Assembly: GCA_020632795.1 (NCBI GenBank)
Contig: JACKEV010000010.1
Coordinates: 159,127 to 223,126 of the forward strand
DNA: 64,000 nt
From: Alphaproteobacteria bacterium
GTDB taxonomy: Bacteria; Myxococcota_A; UBA796; CAJQPC01
Reading direction: 5' to 3'
Position numbers and translations under genes: made by a program. The notes below the pieces were generated by a model, which saw only the letters and a program-made list of their open reading frames with translations, did not search any database and had not been told where the DNA came from. Shown piece after piece: positions 1,898 to 52,504 of this stretch; position 1 is the stretch's first letter, and each line of letters opens with the position of its first letter.

Positions 1898-3097
1898 TCA
1901 TACTCGGGCTCGAAGGGCCTCCCGGAGCGCCAGACGGCGTAGATCTGCGCTGCGAACTTCCGCCCGGCCGCGCCACCGGCTGTCCTGCTCGACTTGCCCC
2001 TGCTCGACCTTGCGCCTGTAGAAGGCGCGGACGGGCGCGTTGAACTGCCTCGCGGTGGTCGAGGCGAGGAGGATCTGGAGGCGCAGCATTCGGTTGCCCT
2101 TGCGCACCATGCGCGTGCTGTAGCCCCCGTCTCCGCTGCGCTTCGACCCGGGGTAGAGCCCGCAGTAGCCGATGAACTTGTCGACCGTCGCGAAGCGGTG
2201 GGGATCACCGGCTTCGGCCAGCAGGACGGCGAGCGTGAGCTCTCCGACCCCTGGGATGGTCAGCAGAACGTGGTCCTGGCGTGCTCTCTCATGCGTGCGC
2301 CTGGATGAGCGACTCCAGCTCCTGGACGTCCTCGTAGCAGCGACGGATCGCGCGGGTGAGTTGCACGACCGTCTGCTGCACGATCCGCGACCAGTGTGGC
2401 TCAAGCGTCATGGTGGCCAGCTCCTGCAGCCGCTGGAGGTGTTTCAGGCGAACTCGGCCCCCTGGGAGTCCGCAGCTCCGCCAGGTCGGCCTCGGTGGCC
2501 GCCAGCAGCCGCTCAGGCGAAGGGAAGGCCTCCAAGAGCGTGCTCAGCCACAAGGGGTCTTCCCCGAAACCGGCGCGTGAAGCCGGGGAGCAGCTCGGCC
2601 AAGCGCCGACGAAGGCGGTTGAGCAGGCGCGTCCGCTCCTCCACCAGTGGCGGCGCCGCGTCCGCACTGCCATCGACAGCTCGCCGCAAGCGCTCCGGCA
2701 AGGCCTTCGGCGCTGGCCGGAACGTCCGCAGGTACTGCGCGATGTCGTTGGAGTCCGTGCGGTCGCTGCGAGAGCCCCGCAGCTTCCAGCTTCGTGAACT
2801 GCTTGATGGTCAGGGGTTGAGCTCCACCACCGCCACGCCGCTGCCCTCCAGCGCCACCAGCAGTGGCCGATGGTAGGCCGCTGTCGACTCGCAGCCCAGC
2901 AGCACCGGGCCCTCCAAGGGCTCGATGCTCCTCAGCAGCTCGGCAAAACCCTGCGGGTCGTTCGCGAGCGTCTGGCGGGGCCTCACGGGGCTCCCCGTGG
3001 CGTCGACGTAGACGACGTCAAGCTTCCTGCTGGCGACATCGACGCCGACGAAGGTGCGGGCGGTCTGCTGGACCGCGCTCACGCTCTCCTCGGTCAT
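1898..3097 (-). pseudogene. IS110-family transposase, disrupted (N-terminal DEDD domain 2810..3097, frameshifted middle, C-terminal Transposase_20 domain 1898..2404)
   Basis: N-terminal fragment has FVGVDVASRKLDVVYVD...; C-terminal fragment has IPGVGELTLAVLLAEAGDPHRFATVDKFIGYCGLYPGSKRSGD. Both are hallmarks of IS110 transposases, but they sit on at least three separate minus-strand frames (2810..3097, 2401..2673 / 2513..2701, 1898..2404). Paralogous to the intact copy at 14466..15713. Confidence 0.55.
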
Positions 3098-4597: not shown

Positions 4598-6393
4598 GTG
4601 CAATTGGTTACATATGTGGGCATGAAGCCTGCGCCTGTTCGCTCCAACACCCCCGGATCTCCAGACTCTGCTGCGCGACCTCGCGGCCGCCGAGGCCCGC
4701 GCGGCGGAAGCCGAGGCGTTCGCGGACGCGGCGCGGCAGCGCGCCGACGACGCCGAGGCCCGCGCCGAGCTCCTCGACGTGAAGGTGCAGGCCCAGGAGA
4801 AGCTGCTCACCGCGTCGATGGCGCAGATCGCCTCGCTGACCCGTCGCCCTGGCCGAGGCGACCAGCCGCCCCTGAGCAGCTGGCCCTGGAGTTCGAGATG
4901 CGCGCGGTCCAGCGCCGGCTCGCGGATCTGCAGCGCGAGCGCTTCGGGCAGACCTCCGAACGGCGCGGCTGCCCCGAGGGGAGCCCGCCCAAGGCGAAGC
5001 CCGAGCCGAAGCCGAAGACGGGCCACGGTCCCACGCCCCAGCCGGACCTGGAGCGTGTCCCACAGATGCACCTGCTCGATCAGGCTGATCAGGTCTGCCC
5101 CGCTGCGCGCCTCCTCGTCCGCTGGAGCCCTGGGTCGGCAAGACCTCCGACGCCGAAGAGGTCACCGTCATCGAGCGCACGTTCCGGATCACGGTGCACA
5201 GACGACAGCTCTATCGCTGCGGGGGCTGTGGCCACATCGAGACCGCGCTGGGGCCGCCTCGGCTCATCCCCGGCGGGCGCTACGCCCCCGAGTTCGCCGT
5301 CGCCGTCGCCGCCGACAAGTACGTCAACGCCCAGCCCCTGGCCAGCCAGGTGCGCGAGATGGCCGACCAGGGGCTCCGCGTCACGACACAGACGCTGTGG
5401 GAGCACTTCCGGTCTGGAGGACCAGGCGCTCTACGTGCTGATGCTGCCCACCTACCTCATGCTCCAGAAGCAGATCCTCGATCAGGACGTCGTCTTCGTC
5501 GACGAGACCTCCTGGCGCCTCATGAAGAAGGGCGGCACCCGCCGCTGGTGCTGCTCCACAGCGGGGCTGGGCGCTCACCGACGGTCGGCGCGCCTTCTTC
5601 CAGCTCGCCCCGACCCGAGGCCAGGCTGCCGCCCGGGAACTCCTCCAGGACTACGACGGCGTGGTCATGGCCGACCGCTATGTCGTCTACGAGGCGCTGG
5701 AGAAGGAGCGCTCCCGCAACGGCGGCCAGCAGACTGTGCTCCGCCTCGACGACGACACCCCCCTGCTGCTCCCCACCCCGGACTACGACCTCGCCGCGTG
5801 CTGGATGCACGGACGCAGGGGCTTCGTCAAGGCCGAGCGGCACGGCGAGCCGGACGCCGACACCGCCCTGGATCTCATCGCAGAGCTCTACGCCGTCGAA
5901 GCCCTCGCCCGAGAGCAGGTCGCCGACATCGTCGACCCCGAACAACGCCAGGCCGCCCTCCTCGACGCCCGCCGTGTGCTCCGGGACACCCGCTCCCGGC
6001 CCGTCCTCCAACGCCTCCGCGCCTGGCTCGATCAGGTCGTCGCCGTGCCCACCCTGCCCCTCGACAAGGCCGTCCGCTGGCTCGACAACGGCTGGACCCA
6101 GCTCATCCGCTTCCTCGACGACCCCCGCATCCCCCTCGACAACGGCCTCGCCGAGCGCGTCATCCGAGGCGTCGTCCTCGGCCGCAAGACCTACGCTGGC
6201 TCCCGCTCCGAGAAGGGCGCCAAGCCGCCGCGGAGCGGTTGCTGCGCTCTTCTACAGCATCGTCGAGAGCTGCCGCCTGGAGGGCGTCGACCCCAGGGCC
6301 TTCATGAACGAAGCCGCCCGCCGAGCCCTCCTGGAGCGCGACGCCGCCTTCCTCCCTGAGGACTTCAAGCAGATGCTCGACGCCGACGGCTGA
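4598..6393 (+). pseudogene. IS66-family transposase (TnpC), multiply frameshifted
   Basis: IS66 TnpC motifs are spread across three frames. These are the leucine-zipper/RERFGQTSER region, CGGCGH zinc finger, VVFVDETSWRLMKKGGTRRW, ACWMHGRRGFVKA, DNGLAERVIRGVVLGRKTYAGSRSEKG and the C-terminal SIVESCRLEGVDPRAFMNE. The relevant ORFs are 4598..6307, 5194..6393 and 5661..6359. Confidence 0.6.
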
Positions 6394-6887: not shown

Positions 6888-7097
6888 CGGAGCCTCACCC
6901 CCCTCGGCGGCCCCGCCCGTCGTTGACCCAAGGAGACACAGATATCCAAGAAGAACCGACCCAAGCCCGCCGAGGTCGGTGAGGTCCGCCTCAGCGCCAT
7001 CAAGGGTCCCCGCAGCGACGGGGCGTGGTACTGGCGCGCCCGCCGCAAGCGCCAGCGGGACACCCTCTGGACCGGCTGGGCCACCCGGGACGAGGCG

Positions 7098-8039
7098 ATG
7101 GAGACCGTCGCCCGCCTCATCGCCAGCGGCCTGCTGGAGCGGGAGGACCCCCGGCCCAGCACCCGCACGATGCACGATCTCCTGGACCTCTGGCTGGAAC
7201 AGCAGGAGCGCCGCCGGGACCTGAGCCCACAGTCCGTCAAGAACTACACCCGCTGCTGCCGTCACGCCGTCGCGTGGCTGGGAGAGCTTCGCCCCGACGA
7301 CCTCGGGCGGCTGACCCTGGAGCGCTACCGCAACCAGCGCCTGGGCGAGGGTGCGGCCCCCCGAACCATCCAGCAGGAGTTGATCGTACTGCGCATGGCA
7401 TGGCGCTGGGCCGGGGACGCCGGGCTCATCCCGGATCGGGCGCTTCCTTCGGTGAAGATCAAGGTCCAGGGCTATGTGGCGAATCACCACACGCCGAGCC
7501 CTGCCGACGCCGCGCGGGTCATCGCGCTGCTCGACGGGGAGGATCAGCTCGCCGCGCAGCTCCTGGCCACCACTGGGGCGCGCGTCTCCGAGGTCACCGG
7601 CCTCAAGCGCTGTGACGTCGACCCCCGGACCCGGCGGGTCACCCTGCGCGGCAAGACCGGGGCCCGGGTCTTCCCCCTGCCGGAGCCGATCTTCGCGCTG
7701 GTGGCCGATCGGATCGACGGCTCGGCGCGGCCGCTGTTCGACTGGACGACCTCTGTGCCGGGATCGCGGGTTCGTGTGGCGCTCCAGAAGGCGTGTCTGC
7801 GCCTCGGGGTGCCCGTGTTCACGCCCCACGGGCTGCGTCGCATGGTCGTGGACCAGATGATCCGCTCGGGCGTAGACGTCTCGACGGCGGCCAGCCTGAC
7901 CGGGCACAGCGTAGAGGTTATGCTGCGGCACTACCGCAAGGTCAGCGAGGCCGACCGGGTCGAGGCGGTGGCGAAGGCGGGGCTGGGGGTGCTGGGCGGC
8001 AAGGTCATCGAGGGGCCGTGGGCGAAGGCTGGGGGGTAA
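7098..8039 (+). CDS. tyrosine site-specific integrase copy B (intact catalytic domain: R..HxLRR..Y)
   Basis: GARVSEV, TPHGLRRMVVDQMIRSG and LRHYRKV motifs are present. The conserved N-terminal arm (KNRPKPAEVGEVRLSAIKGPRSDGAWYWRARR) lies in-frame upstream, from 6927, with no canonical start codon; it is AAG where copy A has ATG. The true start is therefore ambiguous (6927 to 7098). Confidence 0.7.
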   Translation: METVARLIASGLLEREDPRPSTRTMHDLLDLWLEQQERRRDLSPQSVKNYTRCCRHAVAWLGELRPDDLGRLTLERYRNQRLGEGAAPRTIQQELIVLRMAWRWAGDAGLIPDRALPSVKIKVQGYVANHHTPSPADAARVIALLDGEDQLAAQLLATTGARVSEVTGLKRCDVDPRTRRVTLRGKTGARVFPLPEPIFALVADRIDGSARPLFDWTTSVPGSRVRVALQKACLRLGVPVFTPHGLRRMVVDQMIRSGVDVSTAASLTGHSVEVMLRHYRKVSEADRVEAVAKAGLGVLGGKVIEGPWAKAGG

Positions 8040-10014: not shown

Positions 10015-10310
10015 GCCCACCCGAGACCCCCGAACTGCTCGCCCAGGCCCTGCGCCGCTCCTCGAACTGGACCTGGGTGTCCGGCATGCTCATCGTCTAC
10101 GGCAACGGCCGCCGCGCCCTCTACCGAGGCGTCGTCGACGGCCCCGGCGAGGCCCTGCCCGTACTGAAGCACGACGCCACCGCCGGGTGCCTCATGGGCC
10201 TGCTCGCGGAGACCGGGCCAGGCTGGCAGGCGGTGCTCACCGAGGAGATGGCCCGGGGCGGGGACTGGAGGCTGGCGGTGGCGCGGGCGCTGTGGAGGCA
10301 GTGGAGGTAG
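10011..10310 (+). CDS. small hypothetical protein (99 aa), third gene of the coupled module
   Basis: GTG start overlaps the lipoprotein stop (GTGA). Good GC3. No recognisable domain. Confidence 0.3.
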   Translation: MSPPETPELLAQALRRSSNWTWVSGMLIVYGNGRRALYRGVVDGPGEALPVLKHDATAGCLMGLLAETGPGWQAVLTEEMARGGDWRLAVARALWRQWR

Positions 10311-10319
10311 GCGAGTTCG

Positions 10320-10655
10320 ATGCCGCTTGTCACAATCTGTCCGCTCGTGCCATATAGAAGTGGAGCCCCGTCGGGTCCCTCACGCTCGTTGACATCCATA
10401 GAGAAGAACGCTCGACTCAACGGTCCGCTCCGGCACCGCGAATCTGCGAACCTCTCCCACTCCGCGATATGGCAGGTTCAGCCGTTGAGGTTCTCTGAGG
10501 TCTCATACAGCGCGATAGTTCTAATCAAAGGTGATGTATCAACGACTCCGGTTTCCCGAGGTGTTGGCTGCGTCAAGAGCTGGAGAAGCCCGGAGGTCGA
10601 GGTTCGCAAAACCTGTTGGATTCGACCGGCGATATCAGGTAGTTGGAGAGCAAGG
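10320..10655 (+). promoter_or_regulatory. putative CRISPR leader for array 1 (AT-richer than surroundings)
   Basis: GC content drops locally immediately upstream of the first, consensus, repeat. The degenerate repeats are at the far (3') end of the array, so the leader is expected on this side. Confidence 0.35.
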
Positions 10656-10991
10656 GTCCCGGGACCCCGCCCGTCACGGAGGGCATTGAAACGACTGTAT
10701 TGTTTGTCCACAGCAAAAAATGCCTGCCTCCGTCCCGGGACCCCGCCCGTCACGGAGGGCATTGAAACACGTCGTCCTGCCAGGCAGTGATTCGTACGAT
10801 CCAGGTCCCGGGACCCCGCCCGTCACGGAGGGCATTGAAACCTCCTTGTAGAGTGGATGTTTTCTGAATTGAGGACCAGGTCCCGGGACCCTGCCCGTCA
10901 CAGAGGGCATTGAAACTGTGGCGTAATACGCCACGGGGATTTCGAAGATGTCCTGTCCCGGGACCCTGCCCGTCACAGAGGGCATTGAAAG
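10656..10991 (+). CRISPR. CRISPR array 1: five 37-bp repeats GTCCCGGGACCCCGCCCGTCACGGAGGGCATTGAAAC and four spacers (36-39 bp); no adjacent cas genes
   Basis: Repeats start at about 10656, 10732, 10805, 10880 and 10955. The first three are identical. Repeat 4 has two substitutions, and repeat 5 shares these plus a terminal G in place of C. The 3' end ATTGAAAC/G matches the Cas6-generated 8-nt crRNA 5' handle, fixing + strand orientation. Spacers are unique and AT-richer than the genome. Confidence 0.9.
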
Positions 10992-10997
10992 AGCCGA

Positions 10998-11016
10998 ATC
11001 AGCAATCATTGCTGAT
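10998..11016. repeat. perfect palindrome ATCAGCAAT-C-ATTGCTGAT directly after the last CRISPR repeat
   Basis: 9-1-9 inverted repeat read directly from the sequence. It could be a hairpin/terminator or a terminal structure of the IS. Confidence 0.4.
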
Positions 11017-13020
11017 CAGGCCACTTTCCCCTCCGAGTCGCCAACCTGCGCCTCCAGGCGTCACAGTGACAGTAGAATCGCCCATAAAATCGGTATCTTT
11101 CGCGCCCTCCCCAGAATTGGACACAGACCTCCCCCAACCCCCAGCGTCCGTCGAAGGAGACGCGGTCAGGCCGCGTGGGCGGCAGGCGGGCCGCGCCCCA
11201 TGAGGCCCTCGACGAAGGCGCGTGCGTCGAGTTTGGAGACCCAGGCGCGGGCGTGCTGGAGCAGGGCGAGGAGGTTCAGGCGGATGAGCCAGAAGGACCA
11301 GCGACGGTGGCGGGCGGCTTCGAGCTTGAGCTTGCTCTTCTTCTCGTCGTTGGAGCGCTCGCAGCCGGTGCGCTTCTTGTAGAGCTTGCGGTATCCGGCG
11401 CTGTTCCGTGCGATGAGGGGGAACAGGCGGGGGTTGTCGTGGACGTTCATGTTGAGGACGGGGCCCCACTTCGTCTCGGGTTGACAGCGCCAGTCGGGCT
11501 CGCCGTCCGGGGCCAGGGGACAGCGTTCGAGCTTGTTGGCCTTGACGGGGCAGAGGAAGACGCTCTGGTTGGGCCCGCCGGTGCCCCAGGCGGCCATCTC
11601 GGCGCCGGCCTGGCACAGTGGGATGGCGCGAGGGCTCAGGGCGATGTCGGGTCGGGTGGGGTGGACGGCGGGCACGTCGGAGCGCAGCGGGATGACCGGC
11701 CGCATGCCCCAATCCATCGCGTGGGCGTGGTTGGCGCGGGCGTCGTGGCCGGCATCGGCGATGAAGACGGAGAGGCCGAAGCGGTGGCGCTCATCACGGA
11801 GGAGCTTGCCGAGCTGCTCGATGGCCAGGGCACAAGCGCGGTGCTCGCTGTGATCCGCAGGGTCCAGGCGGACCAACAGCGGGAGGTCGTGTCCGTCGAC
11901 CGGGGCGAGCAGCTCGTAGGAGTGGTAGCCGAAATCGTAGCGGTCTCGGTAGGCGTCGTAGCCGCGCTTCGCGTCGGGGTCGGACCAGACCCGATCGTGG
12001 TCGCAGCGGGCGGTCCGGGGACACGAACAGACGCGGCGACCGTGGCCGTTGGCGGCGGTGACCAGCGGGCTGGCGTCCCCTGCGACGATGAGGGCCTCGA
12101 TGTCCTCCAGCAGCCCACGGCGCACAGAGACCTCCACCCCGCAGGTCCACAGGATGCGGGTCAGGCGGCCCAGCAGGTCGTCGGGGTTGCCGGAGCTCCG
12201 GCGGGCCCGGAGCGCGTCGACCAGCTTCGCGGTGGCGTTCTTCTCCGGCTTGCCCTTGCGGCGCTCCCAGCCGGGCTGGGCGCTCTCGGCGCGCCGCCGC
12301 TCCAGCGCGCTGGGGCGAATGGCGACCCCCTCCCGAAGTGGCCCGTCGTGAAGACGGTGGAGGAAGCTGTAGAACGCGCCGATGCTCGGGGACGGGGCGC
12401 GGCGGCGTCCGGGCTCGGGTTCGGCCAGGCCGGCGATGGCCTGGAGCACCGGCTCGGCGCGCAGCCGATGGCCCCAGGCGTTGAGCGCGGGCTCCCCGAC
12501 CAGCGGACCGAGCAGCAGGCAACGCAGCATGACCACCGGGTCCCAGGGCTCGCCGCCGCGGGGGCTCGGCGCGTAGCAGGCCTCCAGGACCGGCCGCGCG
12601 GGCTCCAGCTCGAGGAACCACAGCGTCGTCAACGCGGACGCGTAGAGCCGCAGCTTGTCGCGAAGGTCCGGGCGCCCAGCGAGGGCCTGAAGGCGGGAGA
12701 GGACGAGGTCGTGATAGCATGAGGATGGAGGGGGCGTCATCGTTCTTTTTCGATTTAATTAGGTTTGAAGCGGAGAATTCCGCTGTTTCGATGATCGCCC
12801 CCTTTTCACGCATCGCCAAGCTCAAGGCGGGCTGGGGCGGGCTCGGTGCAGACTCGGTGCCGGCGAGGCGCGCGAATGGTAATCGGTGGGGTCATGATGG
12901 GCCGATGCGGGTTGAGGCGGATGTGACGGGTGGGGTGAAGGGGAGGAATGTCAGGGGGTTGGGATTGGTGATCGGGGTCTTGAAACGTAGTAGCAGCTGT
13001 AAAGACCTGTCGTATCGTAC
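11000..13020 (-). mobile_element. insertion sequence carrying the IS4/IS5-type transposase, inserted between the two CRISPR arrays (boundaries approximate)
   Basis: A relic array-1 repeat at 13021-13048 on the far side of the transposase gene implies insertion into a formerly continuous array. Terminal IRs and target-site duplications could not be defined by eye. Confidence 0.35.
11166..12740 (-). CDS. IS4/IS5-superfamily DDE transposase (524 aa)
   Basis: C-terminal Y-(2)-R-(3)-E-(6)-K signature is present (YKKRTGCERSNDEKK). The Asp residues of the DDE motif lie in VFIADAGHD and DFGYHSYELLAP contexts. Uninterrupted ORF with good GC3. Confidence 0.7.
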   Translation of the reverse strand: MTPPPSSCYHDLVLSRLQALAGRPDLRDKLRLYASALTTLWFLELEPARPVLEACYAPSPRGGEPWDPVVMLRCLLLGPLVGEPALNAWGHRLRAEPVLQAIAGLAEPEPGRRRAPSPSIGAFYSFLHRLHDGPLREGVAIRPSALERRRAESAQPGWERRKGKPEKNATAKLVDALRARRSSGNPDDLLGRLTRILWTCGVEVSVRRGLLEDIEALIVAGDASPLVTAANGHGRRVCSCPRTARCDHDRVWSDPDAKRGYDAYRDRYDFGYHSYELLAPVDGHDLPLLVRLDPADHSEHRACALAIEQLGKLLRDERHRFGLSVFIADAGHDARANHAHAMDWGMRPVIPLRSDVPAVHPTRPDIALSPRAIPLCQAGAEMAAWGTGGPNQSVFLCPVKANKLERCPLAPDGEPDWRCQPETKWGPVLNMNVHDNPRLFPLIARNSAGYRKLYKKRTGCERSNDEKKSKLKLEAARHRRWSFWLIRLNLLALLQHARAWVSKLDARAFVEGLMGRGPPAAHAA

Positions 13021-13048
13021 GTCCCGGGACCCTGCCCGTCACGGAGGG
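13021..13048 (+). repeat. relic fragment of the array-1 CRISPR repeat (28/28 match to the degenerate array-1 variant GTCCCGGGACCCTGCCCGTCACGGAGGG)
   Basis: Direct sequence match. It lies 14 bp upstream of the first array-2 repeat. Confidence 0.6.
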
Positions 13049-13062
13049 AGGCAAGCCCGGCT

Positions 13063-13389
13063 ATCCCTCTCCCCGCTCGTCGGGGAGCCTCATTGAAGCG
13101 GATTCAGCCTGGATGCGGCGGCGCTCCCGGACGACGTCCCTCTCCCCTCTCGTCGGGGAGCCTCATTGAAGCGTCATCAGTCGTCGTCGGACAGCGCGGC
13201 CTTGGGGGTCCCTCTCCCCGCTCGTCGGGGAGCCTCATTGAAGCGGATTCAGCCTGGATGCGGCGGCGCTCCCGGACGACGTCCCTCTCCCCGCTCGTCG
13301 GGGAGCCTCATTGAAGCTTCACGATGGCGTCGAAGGCGGGGTGGTAGGAGGTGTCCCTCTCCCCGCTCGTCGGGGAGAGAGAACGGGCG
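13063..13389 (+). CRISPR. CRISPR array 2: 37-bp repeats GTCCCTCTCCCCGCTCGTCGGGGAGCCTCATTGAAGC (4 full plus 1 truncated terminal repeat), 4 spacers of 35-36 bp with spacer 1 identical to spacer 3
   Basis: Repeats start at about 13063, 13136, 13208, 13281 and 13353; the last diverges after 25 nt. There is an internal CTCCCC/GGGGAG stem. Both arrays share the 5' GTCCC and the 3' CATTGAA(A/G)C. Spacers 13100-13135 and 13245-13280 are identical. Confidence 0.85.
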
Positions 13390-14399
13390 TTAATTTTCGT
13401 GGCAGATCGTAACGGCGCTTCAAGGAAGCTCCCCGATGAGCGAGGAGCCTCACGGGACCTACTCCTCCCCCACCAGCCCCGCCGCGATCCTCTCGGCCAG
13501 CTCATCCAGCTCCGGTTCGCCGAGCTGCATCAGCACGCTGAGCAGGTAGCCGTCCGCGGTGAGGTACGCCCACCGCACGGCAGCCCGGAGCTGACGCAGC
13601 AGCCGCCTACGCCGCCGCCGCCGCGCCCTCGCATCAAGCGCGACCACCGTGGACCTCCTGCCGCCCCTGGCGGCGCTCCTGGCGCAGCGCGGTGAGCGCC
13701 GGGTGCTGGACCAGGCGCAGCACATCGGCCGCCAGCATGGCGACCCCGAGCGCGGCGGCCAGGGGGCTCTCAGCCCCGGCGAGGGCGCGCAGGGACTCCT
13801 TCAAGGCGAGGCCGTGCTCGTCCCAGGCGGTGTTCCAGGCGGCGCGGCGTTCGGATGCGGTCCTCATCGGTGGTGTCTCCTCTCCGGGTGGGCTACAGGC
13901 AGTCCATCGTCTTCGGACGGTCTCTCGGTGTTGGGAGGAATCCCCCTCCCCCTCTCGGCGCCGACTGCGGCCCCATCGCCTCGTGGCGGTGGGGTCGAAG
14001 CGCTTCAGGGGGCACGGCGAAGGGGCGGCCGGCGCGGCTGAGCGCGGCCGGCGGGCGCAGGAGGCCCTCGGGGTGGTCCTCATGTAGCCCCCAGGATGTC
14101 AAGGTCCCGCTTGTCGAGCATCGTCTCATCGCTGCAGGGGGAGGGGTTCGGGGAAGGGGGGCACGCCCCCCTCCCCGTACGCAGCGAGTGCATGGCTGCG
14201 AACCGGTGTGGGTGTCGTGGGCCGAGCCTCGCGACGAGGATGTTCGGGGGAGTTCCCTCCCGCCTCGCCCTCATACGTTCAGGGTCGTCAACCGAGGCGG
14301 CCGCGCCCTCAAGATCCTTCATCCAGGCGAGGAGGGAACCGGGAGGTGACTTGTTCTCACTCTCGAGGTCGCTGCCAGGGCGCCTCCAAGGGTCGTCAG

Positions 14400-15800
14400 C
14401 CTCCCTCCCGGGTCCCCGAACGGGTCCATGTCGCAGCAGGCACGCAGTGGCCTCCAGCGGGTGGCTCAGCTCATGATCCTCGCTGCGTCGAAGAAGGCAC
14501 CGTCGCGCACCAGGGCGTGCATCACACGCACGAGTCGGCAGGCGTTGGCGAGGACGGCCTTCTTGGGGATGACCTTGGCGTCGAGCATGCGGGCGCGTGG
14601 TCCTGCCAGCGCATCCATGCCCATGCGCAGCGAGGCCAGGTACAGCACCTGGCGCAGGTAGCGTCGGCCCCTGCGGCTGATGATGCGGCTGGGCTCCACG
14701 TCCTCTGCGGGCTTGTTGCCAGAGGAGACCTCGACCAGATCGAGGCCCGCCATGGACATCAGCTGACGACTGTGCCGGTAGCCCCGCAGATCGCCGAACT
14801 CGCCCAGCAGGATGGCGGTCGTCGTGGCTCCAAGACGTGGGATCGACAGGAGGTTGGGGGCGTAGTCCACCTGCTCCAGGCGGCCCACCATCTCGGCCTC
14901 GATGGCGCACCTGCTGGCGGTGAGCTGGTCCAACTCGTCGAGGTGCTGCATCAGCACAGCGCGGTGCCCCCTCGCCCCATCGCGGATCCCCACCGAGCGC
15001 TTCGCGGCCGCTCGGAGCGCGTCCACCCGCTCCTCGCCGAGGTTGTGGTGACTGGCCTTGTGCAGTCCCTTGATCAGCGTGCGGCGGCGCGCCGCGAGGA
15101 CCTCCTCCGGCGTCGGCACCGTCCGCAGCCACCACAGGCAGGCCGGCGAGTCCATCTTGCCGAACAGCTTCGGCAGCTCCGGGAACAGCACGTCCACATG
15201 CCGGTGGACCCGGTTGAGCACCTGGCTCCGACGCTTCACCATCTGCTCCCGCGTGCGACCCAACAACCGCAGCTCCGCAAACACGCCCTGCGGCGGACGC
15301 CACGGCTTCGCCTTGCCCTGACGGCAAAGATCCGCCACCAGCGCCGCGTCCTTCGCGTCCGTCTTCCGCCACGTCCCGTCGTACAGCTCCTTCGCTCGCT
15401 TCGTATGCAACGGCTGCACCTGGAACAGCTTCACCCCCCGCTCCGACAGCCAGCGTGCCAGCGCCTCGCCGTAGTGGCCCGTCGGCTCGAACCCCACCAC
15501 GAACTCCGTGTACCGCTCCACCTCCCGAACCGCCTCCTCGCAGTACCTCCACAGCGCGCTGAACCCCTCGACGTCGTTCGTGAATCTCTCCGGCTTCGCC
15601 ATCCAACCGTCGTCCAGTGCCGCCACCGCGACGTGATTCCACTTCGCTACGTCTACTCCGATCACCGCCTGGTGTGGCAGGGTAGGCTGCCAACGTCGTC
15701 GGCTCCTTCGCATGTGCTCTCCTCGGCCTCGTGGGCCTGCTCGTCGTTTTCCAACAAACAGGATCCCACTCCGGGAGGGCACATGCCTGGGGGGCTGGGC
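14400..15800 (-). mobile_element. IS110-family insertion sequence (boundaries approximate; IS110 elements lack classical terminal inverted repeats)
   Basis: A single transposase gene is flanked by short non-coding stretches. Ends are not defined. Confidence 0.3.
14466..15713 (-). CDS. IS110-family transposase (intact)
   Basis: N-terminal VIGVDVAKWNHVAVA (DEDD domain) and C-terminal LLSIPRLGATTTAILLGEFGDLRGYRHSRQLMSMAGLDLVEVSSGNK (Transposase_20) are present. The start was moved to the internal ATG at 15713 because a GGAGAG Shine-Dalgarno sits 5 nt upstream. The longer ORF begins at 15782. Confidence 0.75.
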   Translation of the reverse strand: MRRSRRRWQPTLPHQAVIGVDVAKWNHVAVAALDDGWMAKPERFTNDVEGFSALWRYCEEAVREVERYTEFVVGFEPTGHYGEALARWLSERGVKLFQVQPLHTKRAKELYDGTWRKTDAKDAALVADLCRQGKAKPWRPPQGVFAELRLLGRTREQMVKRRSQVLNRVHRHVDVLFPELPKLFGKMDSPACLWWLRTVPTPEEVLAARRRTLIKGLHKASHHNLGEERVDALRAAAKRSVGIRDGARGHRAVLMQHLDELDQLTASRCAIEAEMVGRLEQVDYAPNLLSIPRLGATTTAILLGEFGDLRGYRHSRQLMSMAGLDLVEVSSGNKPAEDVEPSRIISRRGRRYLRQVLYLASLRMGMDALAGPRARMLDAKVIPKKAVLANACRLVRVMHALVRDGAFFDAARIMS

Positions 15801-17760: not shown

Positions 17761-18291
17761 TCAGTCGCCAGCGCCGCGCCGCTTCTCCTGCTCCTCCAGG
17801 CGGCGAAGAGTGCGGTAGCCGAGGACGGTATGGACGATGGCCCACAGGACTGCGCCGATGGCAATGCGGTAGAGCTTCCAGGCGGGCGCGCCCTGCTCGG
17901 CGCAGTGGTGGAGGATCTCCAGGGAGTCGCCGAGTTGTTCGTCGGTTAGGCGGGGGGGAAGGAGATGAAAGGCCGTGTGGGCGATGAGCAAATAGCCGGC
18001 TGGCAGCCAAGATGTTCGGCCTGCATCCCCTACGTTGGCGGGGAGTTCAGCAACCGAAGGCCCTCTACGCCTAGCGAGACCTCTCACACCAATGCGACGC
18101 AGTTCTACCATACAAATCAATACTGCAACGATCCCACATGCCACTCCTATGCCGAAAACCGCCATTCCAAGAAACACCCCAAATAATCCCCATTCTTCCT
18201 GGAAAAATGCAGCATTTCGCCAAAGCGAAACAAACATGCCGGCAATGTACGCCACAAAAAACAGTGATATGATTCTGGAGACTCTATGCAC
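17761..18291 (-). CDS. membrane protein (2-3 TM helices) with a C-terminal domain shared with 17129..17740; PadR-associated
   Basis: Hydrophobic N-terminus IISLFFVAYIAGMFVSL...FGVFLGMAVFGIGVACGIVAVLICMV. Its start overlaps the PadR stop by 8 nt. Confidence 0.4.
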   Translation of the reverse strand: MHRVSRIISLFFVAYIAGMFVSLWRNAAFFQEEWGLFGVFLGMAVFGIGVACGIVAVLICMVELRRIGVRGLARRRGPSVAELPANVGDAGRTSWLPAGYLLIAHTAFHLLPPRLTDEQLGDSLEILHHCAEQGAPAWKLYRIAIGAVLWAIVHTVLGYRTLRRLEEQEKRRGAGD

Positions 18292-18604
18292 CTGCCACCC
18301 CCGGCACCAACCCGAACAGCCCCGCCACAGCCGTCCCCTGCTCCATCGCCGCCCGCGCGCCCTCGGCCGTCAGCCTGTAGTACCGCCTCGGCCTCCCCCC
18401 GCGCTCCGGCATCGGCTCGCCCTCGTAGCTCTCGATGAGCCCCTCGGCCTCCAGCTTCCTCAGCGCCGGGTACACCGAGCCCTGGTGGAGCACCACGGCC
18501 CCGTTGGTCCGCTCCTGGACCCGGTCGATCAGCTCCAGGCCGAAGCCCGGACCCTTCACGAGTGCCTGGAGGAGAGCTGCCTTCGCGGTGATGGGAGTTT
18601 CCAT
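18284..18604 (-). CDS. PadR-family transcriptional regulator
   Basis: GFGLELIDRVQERTNGAVVLHQGSVYPALRKLEAEGLIESYEGE...RPRRYYRLTAEG is the canonical PadR winged HTH. Confidence 0.8.
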   Translation of the reverse strand: METPITAKAALLQALVKGPGFGLELIDRVQERTNGAVVLHQGSVYPALRKLEAEGLIESYEGEPMPERGGRPRRYYRLTAEGARAAMEQGTAVAGLFGLVPGVAGA

Positions 18605-18617
18605 GACCGCAGCCTAT

Positions 18618-18660
18618 CTCAAGGGTTGAGGAATGCAACCTCAATGGTTGAGAATCAACC
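18618..18660. promoter_or_regulatory. cluster of overlapping palindromes built from TTGAG/CTCAA half-sites (CTCAA-GGG-TTGAGG-AATGCAA-CCTCAA-T-GGTTGA-GAA-TCAACC); candidate PadR operator in the divergent promoter region
   Basis: Inverted repeats read directly from the sequence, 14-40 bp upstream of the PadR start codon. Confidence 0.3.
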
Positions 18661-18738
18661 CAAGCAGACCAGCGAAGCCCCATTGCCTCCCCGCCCCCCA
18701 CCGCCTATGCTCCCCTTCCAAGCTCGAAGCCGGAGCGC

Positions 18739-29710: not shown

Positions 29711-30958
29711 GTGATGCGCCCCTCCCGCCGCCGCCTGATGACCGGATCCGCTGCGCTGGCGGGCATGGGCCTGCTGCCACGCCCGGTCCGCGCGGCCCCC
29801 GCCGACCGCCGCTTCATCTTCATCGTGAACTTCGGCGGATGGGACGTCACCCGGGCCATCTACCCGGCCTTCGACAACCCGGTCGTGGACATGGAGCCGA
29901 ACGCCACCACGGCGCGGGCGGGCAACCTCGACTTCGTGGACCACCCCGAGCGGCCGATGGTGCGGGACTTCTTCCAGCAGTACCACGACCGCACGATGCT
30001 TCTGCACGGCATCCTGGTGCCCTCGGTGGCCCACATGGCCTGCCTGCGCCTCATCCTCACCGGTCGCATCGCCGGGCGGCCCGACTGGCCGGCGATCCTG
30101 GCCAGCGCCGTCGGCCAGCGCTTCGCCCTGCCGCACCTGGTCCTCTCCGGGCCCTCCTACCCCGCCGACCTGGGGGCCTGGGTCACCCGCACCGGCACCA
30201 GCGGCCAGCTCGAGGCCCTCATCACCGGGGACATCGCCGGGTGGAGCGACACGCCGGTCGACGAGACGGGGCTCTTGCTCCAGCAGGCCGAGCAGCGGGT
30301 CCTGGAGCGCCGGGTCCGCCGCGCGGTGGAGGCCGCCCCCGACCCCCGCAGCGCCGCGCTGCTCGACGCCTACGCCGCCAGCCTCGACCGCGCCGAGCAG
30401 CTCAAGCTCGCCAACGACGTCATCGACTGGGAGACCGGCGGGGACTTCGTCGGCGACTGCCTGCTGGCGGCGGACATGCTGGCCCAGGACCTCGCGTCGT
30501 GTGTGACCGTGACCTTCACCCACGACTGGGACACCCACGCGCTGAACGACATCTGGCAGAACTGGCACTGGCAGGGCCTGTTCGACGGCCTCAACGGGCT
30601 GATGCAGACGCTGGACAGCACCCCCGGCCACAGCACGCCCACCCTGGCCGAGGAGACCGTCGTGGTCGTGCTCAGCGAGATGGGCCGCACCCCGGGCCTG
30701 AACGCCGAGGAGGGCAAGGACCACTGGCCCTACACCTCGGCCATGCTCATCGGGCCGGGCTTCACCGGGGACCGGGTCGTGGGGGGCTACGACGACACCT
30801 TCTACGGCCGCCGCCTGGACCACGCCGCCGCCGAGGCCACCGACAGCGGCAGCGACGTCACCTGCGACTCCCTGGGCGCGACCCTGCTCGCCCTGGCCGA
30901 CGTCGACCCCGGGGACTTCCTGCCCGGGGCCAGCGCCATCGAGGGGGTGCTGACGTGA
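29711..30958 (+). CDS. DUF1501-family protein, Tat-exported
   Basis: Twin-arginine signal SRRRLMTGSAALAGMGL. Overall size and composition are typical of DUF1501 (sulfatase-like fold). It is the first gene of a three-gene overlapping operon. Confidence 0.65.
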   Translation: MMRPSRRRLMTGSAALAGMGLLPRPVRAAPADRRFIFIVNFGGWDVTRAIYPAFDNPVVDMEPNATTARAGNLDFVDHPERPMVRDFFQQYHDRTMLLHGILVPSVAHMACLRLILTGRIAGRPDWPAILASAVGQRFALPHLVLSGPSYPADLGAWVTRTGTSGQLEALITGDIAGWSDTPVDETGLLLQQAEQRVLERRVRRAVEAAPDPRSAALLDAYAASLDRAEQLKLANDVIDWETGGDFVGDCLLAADMLAQDLASCVTVTFTHDWDTHALNDIWQNWHWQGLFDGLNGLMQTLDSTPGHSTPTLAEETVVVVLSEMGRTPGLNAEEGKDHWPYTSAMLIGPGFTGDRVVGGYDDTFYGRRLDHAAAEATDSGSDVTCDSLGATLLALADVDPGDFLPGASAIEGVLT

Positions 30959-31869
30959 TCGGCCTCCTGCTCGCCCTGGGCTGCGCCGAGCCCCCGATCG
31001 CCGAGGACCCCGTCCCCGACCCGGTCGTCCCCGACGCCTACGACGTCGACGCCGAGGTCCCCGACCCCGGCGCCCCCCTCACCCCCGACCAGCTCGCCGA
31101 GGGCCTGGACCGGGTGGTCGCCCAGGTCCTGCGCACCGACCCCAGCCTCATGCACGACACCTGGGCCGGGCTGATGTTCGAGCACGCCGACCCCGACTGC
31201 CCCACCGTCGTCGAGCACAACGGCCAGGACCACTGGCGTGAGGACGGCTGCGTCACCGATGACGGCACCACCTTCCAGGGCTGGTCGCTGTACTTCCGCC
31301 TGTTCCAGCCCCAGATGACCACCGAGCCGCTGCACTACCTCAGCGTCGGCTGGCTCAGCGGCCAGGCCACCATCACGACCGCAGCCGGGGTCGAGCTGAT
31401 CAACTACGGCGACGTGCTGCACGAGCGCTACCTGGACCCCGACGACCAGGAGACCGACGCCGGCTTCGTGTTCGGCGACTTCTGGTTCAGCGGCCTGGAC
31501 GGCCAGGGCACCTGGCTCCAGGACGGCGTGACGATGGAGATGTACTTCACCCTCGTCGACCACCACGCCCAGGCCCGCAGCACCGCCCTCGACCTGCAGA
31601 TGGCCTACCTGCCCGACCCCGTGCCCGCCGCCATCTTCGAGGACTTCCTGCTCACCGACGAGGCCGGCGCCTGCGGGCTGGAGCCCGACGGCCGGGTGTG
31701 GGCCCGGGACGACGCCGGGCGCTGGTATGAGGTCATCTTCGAGGGCGCCGCCGCCACCGGCGACGCCTGCGACGGCTGCGGCGAGGCCTGGCTGAACGAC
31801 CAGAGCGTCGGCGAGGTCTGCGTGGACTGGACCCCACTCCTGTTCACCTGGAGCCGAGAGCCCCGATGA
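30955..31869 (+). CDS. lipoprotein (304 aa), Cys-rich C-terminal region
   Basis: GTG start overlaps the DUF1501 stop (GTGA). VIGLLLALGCAEPP lipobox. Confidence 0.5.
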   Translation: MIGLLLALGCAEPPIAEDPVPDPVVPDAYDVDAEVPDPGAPLTPDQLAEGLDRVVAQVLRTDPSLMHDTWAGLMFEHADPDCPTVVEHNGQDHWREDGCVTDDGTTFQGWSLYFRLFQPQMTTEPLHYLSVGWLSGQATITTAAGVELINYGDVLHERYLDPDDQETDAGFVFGDFWFSGLDGQGTWLQDGVTMEMYFTLVDHHAQARSTALDLQMAYLPDPVPAAIFEDFLLTDEAGACGLEPDGRVWARDDAGRWYEVIFEGAAATGDACDGCGEAWLNDQSVGEVCVDWTPLLFTWSREPR

Positions 31870-33425
31870 TGGTGCTCCTGCTCCTGTCCTGCTCCGACGG
31901 CCCGGTCGAGGCCCCCGCGCCCACCGTCGACCCGGTCGTCGCCCTCACCCGACTCAGCCTGGACCTGCGCGGGGTGCGCCCCACCCTGGACGAGTACGCG
32001 GCCGTCGGCGACGACCGCTCCGCCCTTGAGCCCGTGGTCGACGACTGGATGGCCGACCCCCGCTTCGGCCTGCGCTACGCCGACCTGATGGCCCCGGTCT
32101 ATCGCACCCCGGTCACCGAGACCGACATCGAGGAGTTCACCTACACCCTGGACGACCCCACCCGCTTCCTGGAGGGCATGGGCGCCGAGCCCCTGCGCAT
32201 CCTGGCCCGGATCGCCCAGGAGGACCTGCCCTGGACCGAGCTGGTCACCGGCGACTGGACGATGGTCACCGAGGTGATGGCCGAGAGCTACCCCACCGAC
32301 TACCCCGAGAGCGCCACCGGCTGGCAGCTCGCCCACTACACCGACGACCGCCCCGCCGCCGGCGTCCTCTCCACGAACGGGCTGTGGTGGCGCTACAGCT
32401 CCACCCTGGCCAACGCCAACCGGGGCCGGGCCAACGCGGTCAGCCGCATCCTGCTGTGCCGGGACTACCTCGACCAGCAGATCGAGGGCGACCGCGACCT
32501 CAACCTGCTGGACGAGGAGGCCGTCGCGAACGCCCTGGCCACCAGCGACGCCTGCGTGACCTGCCACGCCAGCCTCGACCCGATGGCGGCGGTGTTCTGG
32601 GGCTTCTACAACCACTTCGGCTTCTCCCCCACCGAGCAGACCCACTACCACCCCGAGCGGGAGCGCCTCTGGGCCGAGTACACCGGCGTGGGCCCGGCCT
32701 ACCAGGGCCAGCCCGTCGACGGCCTCGCCGACCTGGGGCGGGCCATCGCCCGGGACCCCCGCTACGCCGAGTGCGCGGTGAAGCGCACCTTCGAGCAGCT
32801 CCTCCAGAGGCCGGCCACCCTGGACGACACCGCCACCCTGACCGAGCACCGCCAGGCCTTCCTGGAGGGCGGGCTGACCGTGCGGGCCCTGGTGCGCGCG
32901 GTGGTCACCAGCCCGGACTACCTCACCCCGCCCACCGACGACCCGGCGGCCAGCCCCTGGAAGCTGGTCACCCCCTGGCAGTACGCCGCCCAGGTCGAGG
33001 ACCTCACCGGCTTCCGCTTCGCGGTGGGCGGCTACGACCTGTTCAACACCGACACCTTCGGGGTGCGCGGCCTGGCCGGGGACGTGGGCGCGGACTTCTC
33101 CAGCCGCAGCGGGGTGGAGCCCACCGCCACGATGGCCCTGGTCATGGAGCGGGTGGCCGAGGCCGCCGCCTGGTACGCCGTCGACCAGCCCGATCAGAAC
33201 CTCATCACCGAGGTCCCGGTGGACGCGGTGCCCAGCGAGGCCGACGCCATCGCCCAGCTTGAGGCCCTGCACCTCCGCGTGCTCGGCCAGCAGGGCGACA
33301 CGGAAGACGTCGCGCGGACCTGGGCGCTGTGGCAGCAGCTCCACGCCCTGTCGGGCTCGCCGCGGGACGCGTGGGCCGGGGTGCTGGCGTACCTGATGCG
33401 GCACCCGGGGTTCGTGGTGTATTGA
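31866..33425 (+). CDS. DUF1549/DUF1553-like (PSD1/PSCyt-type) protein, usual partner of DUF1501
   Basis: RLSLDLRGVRPTLDEYAAVGDD...DPRFGLRYADLM matches the DUF1549 N-terminal motif. A CVTCHASLDP cysteine/histidine motif is present in the C-terminal half. ATG overlaps the upstream stop (ATGA). Confidence 0.55.
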   Translation: MMVLLLLSCSDGPVEAPAPTVDPVVALTRLSLDLRGVRPTLDEYAAVGDDRSALEPVVDDWMADPRFGLRYADLMAPVYRTPVTETDIEEFTYTLDDPTRFLEGMGAEPLRILARIAQEDLPWTELVTGDWTMVTEVMAESYPTDYPESATGWQLAHYTDDRPAAGVLSTNGLWWRYSSTLANANRGRANAVSRILLCRDYLDQQIEGDRDLNLLDEEAVANALATSDACVTCHASLDPMAAVFWGFYNHFGFSPTEQTHYHPERERLWAEYTGVGPAYQGQPVDGLADLGRAIARDPRYAECAVKRTFEQLLQRPATLDDTATLTEHRQAFLEGGLTVRALVRAVVTSPDYLTPPTDDPAASPWKLVTPWQYAAQVEDLTGFRFAVGGYDLFNTDTFGVRGLAGDVGADFSSRSGVEPTATMALVMERVAEAAAWYAVDQPDQNLITEVPVDAVPSEADAIAQLEALHLRVLGQQGDTEDVARTWALWQQLHALSGSPRDAWAGVLAYLMRHPGFVVY

Positions 33426-39998: not shown

Positions 39999-40078
39999 CG
40001 CCCCCCCCGAGGCCCTCGGAGGTGCTAAGGTCACCCGGCGAGGGGCTCGACGCCCCGTGGTGAACAAGAGGGTGAAGC

Positions 40079-41977
<1,899 letters not shown>

Positions 41978-42044
41978 GCCCGTGACCCTGGCCTCGGCGC
42001 CCTTCCCGGAATAACGGTAGCCGACGCAGCAGCGGAGGATCCGG

Positions 42045-50677: not shown

Positions 50678-52504
<1,827 letters not shown>

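Follow-up and report, generated by a model that had tools for sequence, protein, structure and literature searches.

A classic case of an insertion sequence (IS) that entered a CRISPR repeat is IS6110 in Mycobacterium tuberculosis. Orphan arrays are often found in regions rich in mobile elements, where they are either served in trans by a distant cas operon or are decaying. The IS-split array of M. tuberculosis no longer grows by spacer acquisition, but changes through repeat-spacer duplications, through deletions, and through SNPs in the repeats (PMC7708916). In one reported case, an isolated array is functional (PMC13142298).

Here, we describe a locus from a metagenome-assembled genome (MAG) labelled Alphaproteobacteria, in which two small CRISPR arrays are arranged head to tail and the fifth repeat of array 1 carries an inserted IS of 2 kb. 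All coordinates refer to the window, i.e. the whole 64-kb stretch of DNA that was analyzed. We consider it very probable that the locus is a composite, plus-strand CRISPR locus of leader, array 1, and array 2 that was later broken by the IS. The insertion of an IS into a CRISPR repeat is already a well-known type of event; the locus is real but ordinary.

Organization of the two arrays

The locus comprises the following features.

10400 to 10655, plus strand: putative leader of array 1, GC 56% versus 72% for the window, upstream of the identical youngest repeats
10656 to 10990, plus strand: leader-proximal part of array 1 (repeats R1–R4, spacers S1–S4, and R5 up to its nt 36)
10985 to 10990, no strand: left-hand TTGAAA of the target-site duplication, same as 12980-12985, abutting the IS terminus
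10991 to 12979, minus strand: IS (1,989 bp); its terminal inverted repeats are imperfect, GAGCCGAATCAGCAATC on the left and GACCCCGATCACCAATC on the right (reverse complement)
11166 to 12740, minus strand: intact transposase gene, 524 aa, DDE type (Pfam DDE_Tnp_1, E = 1.7e-6)
12980 to 12986, plus strand: right TTGAAA copy plus the final C of R5, directly following the IS
12987 to 13020, plus strand: spacer S5 of array 1, 34 nt, GC 47%, cut off from the rest of array 1 by the IS
13021 to 13048, plus strand: R6, the terminal truncated repeat of array 1 (earlier called a relic), first 28 nt kept, without CATTGAAAC
13049 to 13062, plus strand: junction of array 1 and array 2, 14 bp (AGGCAAGCCCGGCT), too short for a leader
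13063 to 13389, plus strand: array 2, four full GTCCCTCTCCCCGCTCGTCGGGGAGCCTCATTGAAGC repeats and a fifth truncated after 25 nt, spacers of 35-36 nt
13422 to 13458, plus strand: possible sixth, heavily degenerate array-2 repeat at the trailer end, 79% over 24 nt, spacing 70 nt, a weak candidate

The 37-nt repeat of array 1 is GTCCCGGGACCCCGCCCGTCACGGAGGGCATTGAAAC, with T13 and A23 in R4 and R5, and its copies start at positions 10656, 10732, 10805, 10880, and 10955. Spacers S1–S4 (39, 36, 38, and 38 nt) are all unique and have a GC content of 45-58%. The GC content of S5 is similar to that of S1–S4, whereas the array-2 spacers (63-72%) and the genome (72%) differ from it. Altogether, array 1 consists of five full repeats and one truncated repeat with five unique spacers of 34-39 nt. 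The preliminary description extended array 1 to position 10991, which is the first base of the IS. It also rightly noted a 28-nt copy of the array-1 repeat at 13021-13048, 14 bp ahead of array 2. This copy, R6, was taken for an exact match to the degenerate repeat variant; however, it carries T13 as in R4 and R5 but G23 as in R1–R3, and therefore matches each of the two variants at 27 of 28 positions.

R1–R3 are identical, R4 and R5 represent the variant, and R6 is truncated. The putative leader lies on the side of the identical repeats, whereas the variant and truncated repeats are found at the opposite end. This gradient, the lower-GC leader on the left, and the 3' ends of the repeats, which in both arrays read ATTGAAAC or ATTGAAGC on the plus strand, together indicate a plus-strand polarity of the locus. 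A promoter scan found no sigma-70 consensus promoter in the leader or at the ends of the IS, and the leader promoter considered below is a putative one.

The full-length repeats of array 2 (37 nt) start at 13063, 13136, 13208, and 13281, and the truncated copy starts at 13353. The extent of array 2 agrees with the preliminary description. S1 equals S3 through a 145-bp duplication, leaving only three distinct spacers. The array lacks a leader of its own, the first base of its first repeat is changed, and its last repeat is truncated. When folded, the array-2 repeat starts with 3 nt, which precede a 7-bp stem closed by a 5-nt loop; the remaining 12 nt form a 3' tail. Common to the repeats of both arrays are the motifs GTCCC, CCCCGCYCGTC, GGAG, and CATTGAARC. 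The stretch at 13422-13458 scores as an inverted copy as well, because the core of the repeat is palindromic.

The insertion sequence and its insertion site

At both ends, the IS agrees with two related IS groups (GAGCCTGATCGGCAAT / GAGCCTAATCGGCAAA and GAGCACTATCGGCAT / GAGCCCTATCGGCAT), whose termini were defined by comparing different insertion sites in 6 and 10 IS-carrying contigs. The two inverted repeats agree at 13 of 17 positions; the figure is 15 of 19 when counting into the duplicated bases. The preliminary description had proposed to look for terminal inverted repeats and a target-site duplication, and both are present. When the IS is excised in silico, so that 10955-10990 is joined to 12986, the result is GTCCCGGGACCCTGCCCGTCACAGAGGGCATTGAAAC, which is identical to R4. 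Removing the IS together with one TTGAAA copy thus restores a perfect repeat 5, and the breakpoint is inside repeat 5, at 10990/10991 and 12979/12980. Base 10991, previously read as the mutated last base of repeat 5, belongs to the IS according to the terminus comparison.

In one of the related IS groups, 5-bp duplications flank the termini exactly in two contigs (AGTTA in L010 and AGGTT in L011). Because the duplication is 6 bp long here compared with 5 bp in this measured relative, an error of one base is possible at one end of the IS. A reading in which S5 or R6 forms part of the IS was dropped, since the termini are fixed by the comparison with the related IS groups; the IS ends at 12979, and the assignment of 13021-13048 to the element, named beforehand as the finding that would overturn the proposed split, is thereby settled in favor of the split. 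The related IS copies examined are located in ordinary genes and none in arrays.

The earlier proposal that the IS landed within a longer array 1 that reached at least to 13048 holds. However, R6 does not mark the breakpoint, as had been assumed, but is the next repeat downstream, beyond a 34-nt spacer. Likewise, the IS does split the locus, but it does not separate array 1 from array 2; it divides array 1 itself into R1-R5' and 'R5-S5-R6. Before the insertion, the order would have been the leader (about 10400-10655), array 1 with six repeats (the last one truncated) and five spacers, the 14-bp junction, and array 2. The 1,989-bp IS would then have entered repeat 5 by transposition at its A+T-rich 3' end (ATTGAAAC), thereby duplicating TTGAAA.

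The transposase gene between the arrays had been correctly described as intact, as encoding 524 amino acids, and as lying on the minus strand. Its product scores 28.4 bits against DDE_Tnp_1 (PF01609; gathering cut-off 23), and residues D222, D329, E461, R457, and K468 are invariant in 26 homologues. It is 100% identical to MCB9762269.1. According to protein records, the same MAG holds further copies, MCB9760840.1 (98.4% identical) and the partial MCB9761178.1, which suggests that the IS is present in 2-3 copies. The element thus combines the DDE_Tnp_1 domain with a D, D, E triad, inverted repeats, a target duplication, and an apparent multi-copy state, by which an IS is recognized. The start of the transposase annotated by PGAP is apparently 36 codons too short.

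The assignment of the element to an IS4/IS5 type is good at the superfamily level only. None of the named IS families compared (IS1182, IS5, IS4, IS1634, IS701, and ISH3) reached its NCBIfam equivalog cut-off; the best score was obtained for IS1182 (23 bits, cut-off 270), followed by IS5 (20.9 bits, cut-off 110). Plasmid relatives are annotated just as "transposase" or "hypothetical protein," and a PDB search with the transposase sequence and its family profile returned nothing meaningful, i.e. no relative of solved structure by sequence. Some homologues possess an N-terminal DUF772 (PF05598). The IS is one of a widespread unnamed clade of DDE_Tnp_1 elements, which are about 2.0-2.3 kb long and have the termini GAGCC...ATCGGCAA, and this clade is a candidate for registration as an IS group.

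CRISPR identity and alternative explanations

Both arrays consist of at least three near-identical, regularly spaced direct repeats, which at 37 nt fall within the CRISPR range of about 23-50 nt. They are separated by spacers of similar length, all unique in array 1 and three of them unique and one duplicated in array 2, and array 1 additionally shows an A+T-richer leader and a degenerate far end. In 100 dinucleotide-preserving shuffles, neither repeat pattern was matched once. No cas genes adjoin the arrays within the 64-kb window, which extends 10.6 kb on the leader side. None was detected by Pfam in about 54 ORFs across the window, by PADLOC in 44 window ORFs and 10 unannotated ORFs, or by PADLOC among all 142 six-frame ORFs of at least 85 aa between 1 and 20 kb. 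In the 44-ORF run, 25 of the 36 matched families are listed, and all of those are kinase-type. Weak PADLOC matches to Csa3 and a type IV Cas11 were rejected as noise, as they lie within a PadR regulator, in its wHTH domain, and within the IS110 transposase. The Pfam and PADLOC scans therefore verify, for these 64 kb, the earlier statement that no cas gene is present. Adjacent cas genes are not obligatory for a CRISPR array, and orphan arrays exist.

The surroundings contain an IS66 fragment, IS110 elements, and one integrase (6927-8039; Pfam, among the ORFs tested). Of the island composition given in the preliminary description, the IS110 elements and, as a fragment, IS66 were recovered, whereas Pfam identified one integrase instead of two.

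No spacer had a match among 50,697 phage records and 72,556 plasmids or in the window itself, and 24-mers of four spacers were unmatched in IMG/VR. Most environmental spacers have no known match. As no protospacer was found for any spacer, an immune function of the arrays is putative. Rfam contained no matching CRISPR-DR family, whether 10300-13800 was searched at E <= 1 or the whole window at gathering score. Searches of 185,579 species genomes, of JGI metagenomes, and of IMG/VR revealed no other arrays with either repeat. A strict degenerate pattern for both repeats yielded 0 matches in genome and metagenome contigs; a relaxed 19-base core pattern yielded 14 genome, 20 metagenome, and 0 viral-contig matches, which are single and at chance level. 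Two matches in one Acidimicrobiales MAG were discarded, as they represent a duplicated coding sequence and no array.

The absence of cas genes, protospacers, and an Rfam CRISPR-DR match could suggest that the repeats are not CRISPR repeats at all but protein-coding repeats, REP/MITE-like elements, or other interspersed repeats. We regard this as extremely unlikely, given the 37-nt repeats with unique 34-39-nt spacers at regular spacing, the conserved 3' ATTGAAAC or ATTGAAGC motif in both repeats, the stem-loop in the array-2 repeat, the polar repeat decay together with a leader-like stretch, and the lack of any ORF with coding-type GC3 over the arrays. The probability is next to negligible that unrelated loci were joined through the IS during assembly. 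Although the sequence stems from a MAG in which the IS appears to be multi-copy, the same 6-bp duplication is found on both flanks, the flanks together rebuild one repeat perfectly, and the array-1 repeat recurs 34 nt past the IS, a pattern that a chimeric join would not yield. We also consider it very unlikely that the IS inserted between the two arrays, with R6 as the remnant of the repeat that was hit and array 1 ending in a point-mutated repeat at 10991. A repeat fragment beyond the IS and a repeat 5 that seemingly ends in G instead of C would fit this scenario. However, the related IS groups place the termini at 10991 and 12979, TTGAAAC at 12980-12986 completes repeat 5 exactly after the IS, a spacer-like 34-nt stretch (47% GC) lies between the IS and R6, and the truncation of R6 affects the 3' end, which points away from the IS.

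Somewhat unlikely, but a serious possibility, is that the key scar of the locus is the junction between R6 and array 2. The junction would then have formed either by a deletion between two formerly separate arrays that removed the array-2 leader and possibly a cas operon with an array on each side, or by recombination of a foreign leader-plus-repeat module in front of an older array 2, with the module subsequently acquiring S5 to S1. In line with such an event, R6 is cut cleanly at 28 nt rather than decayed and lies 14 bp before array 2, which is leaderless and changed in the first base of its first repeat; the two repeats are related but distinct, spacer GC differs between the arrays (45-58% versus 63-72%), and mobile-element debris fills the area. 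On the other hand, terminal repeats of ordinary arrays are often 3'-degenerate or 3'-truncated, no cas remnant was detected on either side, and no related locus was found for comparison. Such a scar is compatible with the IS insertion and would not replace it. We consider a more far-reaching proposal very unlikely: a hybrid array, formed when a leader-plus-repeat module of a second CRISPR system took the place of an older array's leader or by clean loss of a cas operon between the arrays, and in addition an uncharacterized IS clade that favors ATTGAAAC ends. If true, an IS clade with preference for the A+T-rich repeat terminus in a 72% GC genome would represent a recurrent inactivator of arrays.

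For the composite locus broken by the IS, we directly observe its repeats and spacers, both boundaries of the IS, the target duplication, and the fact that taking out the IS restores repeat 5 exactly. The repeats that flank S1–S4 remain intact, and these spacers could give rise to crRNAs, provided that another part of the genome encodes a matching Cas6- or Cas5d-type nuclease and an effector. On its 5' side, S5 presumably no longer has a repeat hairpin. Moreover, 2 kb of antisense IS lie between the putative leader promoter and both S5 and the whole of array 2, which are therefore probably silent. Because it is leaderless, array 2 should be unable to acquire spacers, and its sole change would be the 145-bp duplication of two repeat-spacer units. 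The missing cas genes, the truncated repeats, and the IS and integrase debris around the arrays point to a decaying locus in a mobile-element-rich region. Its importance beyond annotation is small. The locus provides a clean, base-resolved case of a CRISPR repeat disrupted by an IS in an uncultured high-GC bacterium, and it illustrates how a short orphan array decays through IS insertion, repeat truncation, and repeat-spacer duplication instead of the uptake of new spacers.

Comparison with known systems

The transposase resembles those of the IS1182 and IS5 families in its DDE_Tnp_1 domain, the Y-x2-R-x3-E-x6-K signature around E461, and the organization in a single ORF, and the element shares with these families short imperfect inverted repeats and a 5-6-bp target duplication. 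The DUF772 found in some of its homologues is typical of IS5 and IS1182 transposases. In contrast to members of both families, however, its NCBIfam scores remain far under the family cut-offs.

At their 3' ends (ATTGAAAC or ATTGAAGC), the repeats are similar to the ATTGAAA(C/G) repeats of type I-A/B/C/D and type III systems, which are processed by Cas6 or Cas5d to leave an 8-11-nt 5' handle. The geometry of the array-2 repeat resembles that of type I-C repeats. Unlike those, which are typically roughly 32 nt long, the repeats described here measure 37 nt and lack an Rfam CRISPR-DR match, and because cas genes are missing, no subtype is assigned to the arrays. In the absence of nearby cas genes and in its mobile-element-rich surroundings, the locus resembles other orphan (isolated) CRISPR arrays.

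As in the IS6110 case of M. tuberculosis, an array is split by an internal IS. Similar to that case, array 2 contains a repeat-spacer duplication (S1 = S3), and the repeats include SNP variants. The two loci differ in the inserted element, IS6110 being an IS3-family element of 1,355 bp, whereas a 1,989-bp DDE_Tnp_1 element is found here. Furthermore, type III-A cas genes adjoin the array in M. tuberculosis, whereas the present arrays have no cas genes within 64 kb, and, unlike in M. tuberculosis, two different repeat types abut at this locus.

Organization of array 1 and its interruption by the IS

Two sets of 37-nt direct repeats are found on the plus strand between positions 10656 and 13389. 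Array 1 follows the consensus GTCCCGGGACCCCGCCCGTCACGGAGGGCATTGAAAC and array 2 the consensus GTCCCTCTCCCCGCTCGTCGGGGAGCCTCATTGAAGC; none of 100 dinucleotide-preserving shuffles contained a match to either repeat pattern.

Features of the repeat locus
10656, 10732, 10805, 10880 and 10955 (starts), plus strand: array 1 repeats R1–R5, 37 nt each
11166–12740, minus strand: transposase ORF of the insertion sequence (IS), 524 aa, coding-type GC3
13021–13048, plus strand: R6, terminal repeat of array 1, 28 nt, last 9 nt missing
13063, 13136, 13208 and 13281 (starts), plus strand: array 2 repeats, 37 nt each

Repeats R1–R3 of array 1 are identical and adjoin a lower-GC stretch (10400–10655, 56% GC versus 72% for the window) that represents the putative leader. 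R4 and R5 carry a T at position 13 and an A at position 23, and the spacers S1–S4 (39, 36, 38, and 38 nt) are all unique. The repeats of both arrays end in a 3′ ATTGAAAC or ATTGAAGC motif, as is typical for many type I and type III repeats, indicating transcription on the plus strand. The location of R1–R3 beside the lower-GC stretch and of the variant and truncated repeats at the opposite end agrees with this polarity. Geometry, 3′ motif and polarity together make it unlikely that these are repeats of a non-CRISPR kind.

To map the IS between the arrays, we used contigs bearing two relatives of its transposase, P0053 (6 contigs) and P0077 (10 contigs), and placed the boundary where differently flanked contigs diverge. 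The mapped related elements are about 2,095 and 2,255 bp long. Their termini are GAGCCTGATCGGCAAT and GAGCCTAATCGGCAAA in the P0077 group, and GAGCACTATCGGCAT and GAGCCCTATCGGCAT in the P0053 group (right ends as reverse complement). In two contigs, 5-bp duplications lie exactly at the P0077-group termini (AGTTA in L010 and AGGTT in L011). Termini of the same kind are present at the left end of the gap (GAGCCGAATCAGCAATC, from 10991) and at its right end (GACCCCGATCACCAATC, reverse complement, ending at 12979). Therefore, the IS extends from 10991 to 12979 (1,989 bp).

The IS is flanked by TTGAAA at 10985–10990 and 12980–12985. When the IS and one TTGAAA copy are removed, 10955–10990 joins the C at 12986 to give GTCCCGGGACCCTGCCCGTCACAGAGGGCATTGAAAC, which is identical to R4, demonstrating that the IS inserted in the A+T-rich 3′ end of R5. 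The proposal of the preliminary description that the IS landed inside a once-continuous array 1 is thus borne out, with the insertion mapped to the base, whereas the G at 10991, taken there for a mutated last base of R5, marks base 1 of the IS. The target duplication comprises 6 bp here versus 5 bp in the P0077-group relative; either the family generates 5–6-bp duplications or one IS end is a base longer, and the conclusion of an insertion in R5 is independent of this difference. Both the matching duplication on the two sides and the reconstruction of a complete repeat speak against an assembly chimera formed through a multi-copy IS, and contradict that reading.

The completed R5 is followed by 34 nt (12987–13020) with 47% GC, which resembles S1–S4 (45–58%), unlike the spacers of array 2 (63–72%) or the genome (72%). 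This spacer-like segment, S5, followed by the repeat fragment at 13021–13048, identifies the fragment as R6, the terminal repeat of array 1. R6 has T13 as in R4 and R5 and G23 as in R1–R3, so that it matches each variant at 27 of 28 positions and is not the exact copy of the variant repeat that it had been thought to be. It lies outside the IS, which stops at 12979, as originally supposed; its reading as a relic that marks the breakpoint is contradicted by the mapped IS ends.

Array 2 and its junction with array 1

Array 2 starts 14 bases after R6 and therefore lacks a leader of its own. A fifth repeat copy at 13353 stops after 25 nt. The spacers are 35–36 nt long. Tandem duplication of a 145-bp block, comprising two repeats and two spacers, has made spacer 1 (13100–13135) identical to spacer 3 (13245–13280); the two copies of the block show 98% identity and include one repeat SNP (G to T at 13148). 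By this duplication array 2 grew through recombination, not acquisition. Downstream of array 2, the stretch at 13416–13452 matches its repeat in direct orientation (79% over 24 nt) and also inverted (88% over 32 nt), owing to the palindromic core of the repeat, and is probably a decayed trailer repeat; a very degenerate copy may occupy about 13422–13458.

The repeats of the two arrays are clearly related yet distinct, with GTCCC, CCCCGCYCGTC, GGAG, and CATTGAARC common to both. The sharp contrast in spacer GC content (45–58% in array 1 versus 63–72% in array 2) suggests that the two arrays sampled different pools of invaders or have had distinct histories. We consider it possible, if rather doubtful, that the junction between R6 and array 2 is the scar of a deletion or leader swap, in addition to the IS event and not in its place. 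Such a scar would account for R6 being cut off cleanly, for the absence of a leader before array 2, and for the change in spacer composition.

Searches of species-representative genomes, JGI metagenomes, and IMG/VR, by a strict and by a relaxed pattern, yielded no other arrays with these repeats, and no Rfam repeat family matched. The spacers had no matches among phages, plasmids, IMG/VR contigs, or the window itself.

The transposase and the genomic neighborhood

The 524-aa transposase scores 28.4 bits against Pfam DDE_Tnp_1, exceeding the gathering score of 23 bits, and none of the named NCBIfam IS families matched (best, IS1182, 23 bits versus a cut-off of 270). Its 116 homologues (26–53% identity) are mostly located on 2.0–2.3-kb metagenome contigs, which fits an IS of about 2 kb. 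In an alignment of 26 homologues, Asp-222, Asp-329, Glu-461, Arg-457, and Lys-468 are invariant, the last three within the signature Y-x2-R-x3-E-x6-K, and seven cysteines are fully or almost fully conserved. The IS belongs to a widespread clade, comprising the 116 homologues, that shares termini GAGCC..ATCGGCAA, 5–6-bp target duplications, and the seven conserved cysteines. In plasmid records it goes under no name more specific than “transposase” or “hypothetical protein.”

A database protein with 100% identity, MCB9762269.1, comes from a MAG labeled “Alphaproteobacteria bacterium”; the same MAG encodes two further copies, one with 480 of 488 residues identical and the other partial. The MCB9762269.1 record comprises 488 aa, its start lying 36 codons past the first ATG. 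Because the homologues align across all 524 aa (98–100% query coverage), its annotated start is probably too short.

Mobile elements are abundant in the stretch that carries the arrays.

Mobile elements around the arrays
1898–3097, minus strand: broken IS110 with separate N- and C-terminal ORFs, probably a pseudogene
5526–6359, plus strand: IS66 transposase fragment, C-terminal half of the Pfam model (positions 130–283 of 284)
6927–8039: tyrosine integrase (Pfam)
14466–15782, minus strand: intact IS110 transposase (DEDD, “RNA-guided” family), 1.1 kb downstream of array 2

Instead of the two integrases reported initially, only the one at 6927–8039 was found among the ORFs scanned. Likely genes were called from GC3. 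The Pfam scan covered about 54 ORFs across the window save for a few gaps of ≤1.1 kb, and PADLOC scans covered 44 ORFs, 10 unannotated ORFs near the arrays, and all 142 six-frame ORFs of at least 85 aa in 1–20 kb. Among the matches listed for the 44 ORFs (25 of 36 families), all were kinase-type. Only two weak Cas-named matches emerged: Csa3 (E = 1.6e-4 and 6.5e-4), on the wHTH domain of a regulator of the PadR family (Pfam PadR, 7e-20), and type IV Cas11 (E = 2.6e-3), inside the IS110 transposase. Both were treated as noise; hence, the 64 kb contain no detectable cas gene, as the preliminary description had stated, and the arrays are orphan over 10.6 kb in the leader direction and 50 kb in the opposite one.

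The PadR-family regulator (18287–18664) occupies a patch of locally low GC (63%), next to a 22-nt tandem repeat (CTCAAGGGTTGAGAATCAAC, 2.3 copies), a possible operator for it. From about 19 kb onward, the genes are ordinary housekeeping ones. A grpE-dnaK-dnaJ cluster lies at 39012–43142, and another Hsp70 paralogue, which is shorter, follows after about 9 kb (50678–52504). The window holds no tRNA genes. DUF1501 and PSCyt2/PSD2 (DUF1549/DUF1585) proteins are encoded at 29711–33425, and large TPR and Ser/Thr-kinase proteins elsewhere. Compared with Alphaproteobacteria, such content is commoner in Planctomycetota or Myxococcota, and the taxonomic label of the MAG may therefore be wrong.

Proposed function and comparison with known arrays

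From the observed structure of arrays and IS, we infer that leader transcription would still span S1–S4, each with intact repeats on either side; of R5, the left part retains 36 of 37 nt. CrRNAs from S1–S4 would be possible if a matching processing nuclease and effector are encoded elsewhere in the genome. S5 no longer has a repeat on its 5′ side, and both S5 and the leaderless array 2 are probably silent because they lie behind 2 kb of IS read antisense. Without a leader, array 2 would not acquire spacers, recombinational duplication being its sole visible change. Overall, the arrays and the IS look like a decaying locus.

Insertion of an IS into a CRISPR array is a textbook event, and orphan arrays are common; the split array 1 is a further example of the former. 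Three features set the present case apart: its IS comes from a DDE_Tnp_1 clade that has no name, the arrays lie without cas genes nearby, and two repeat types abut.
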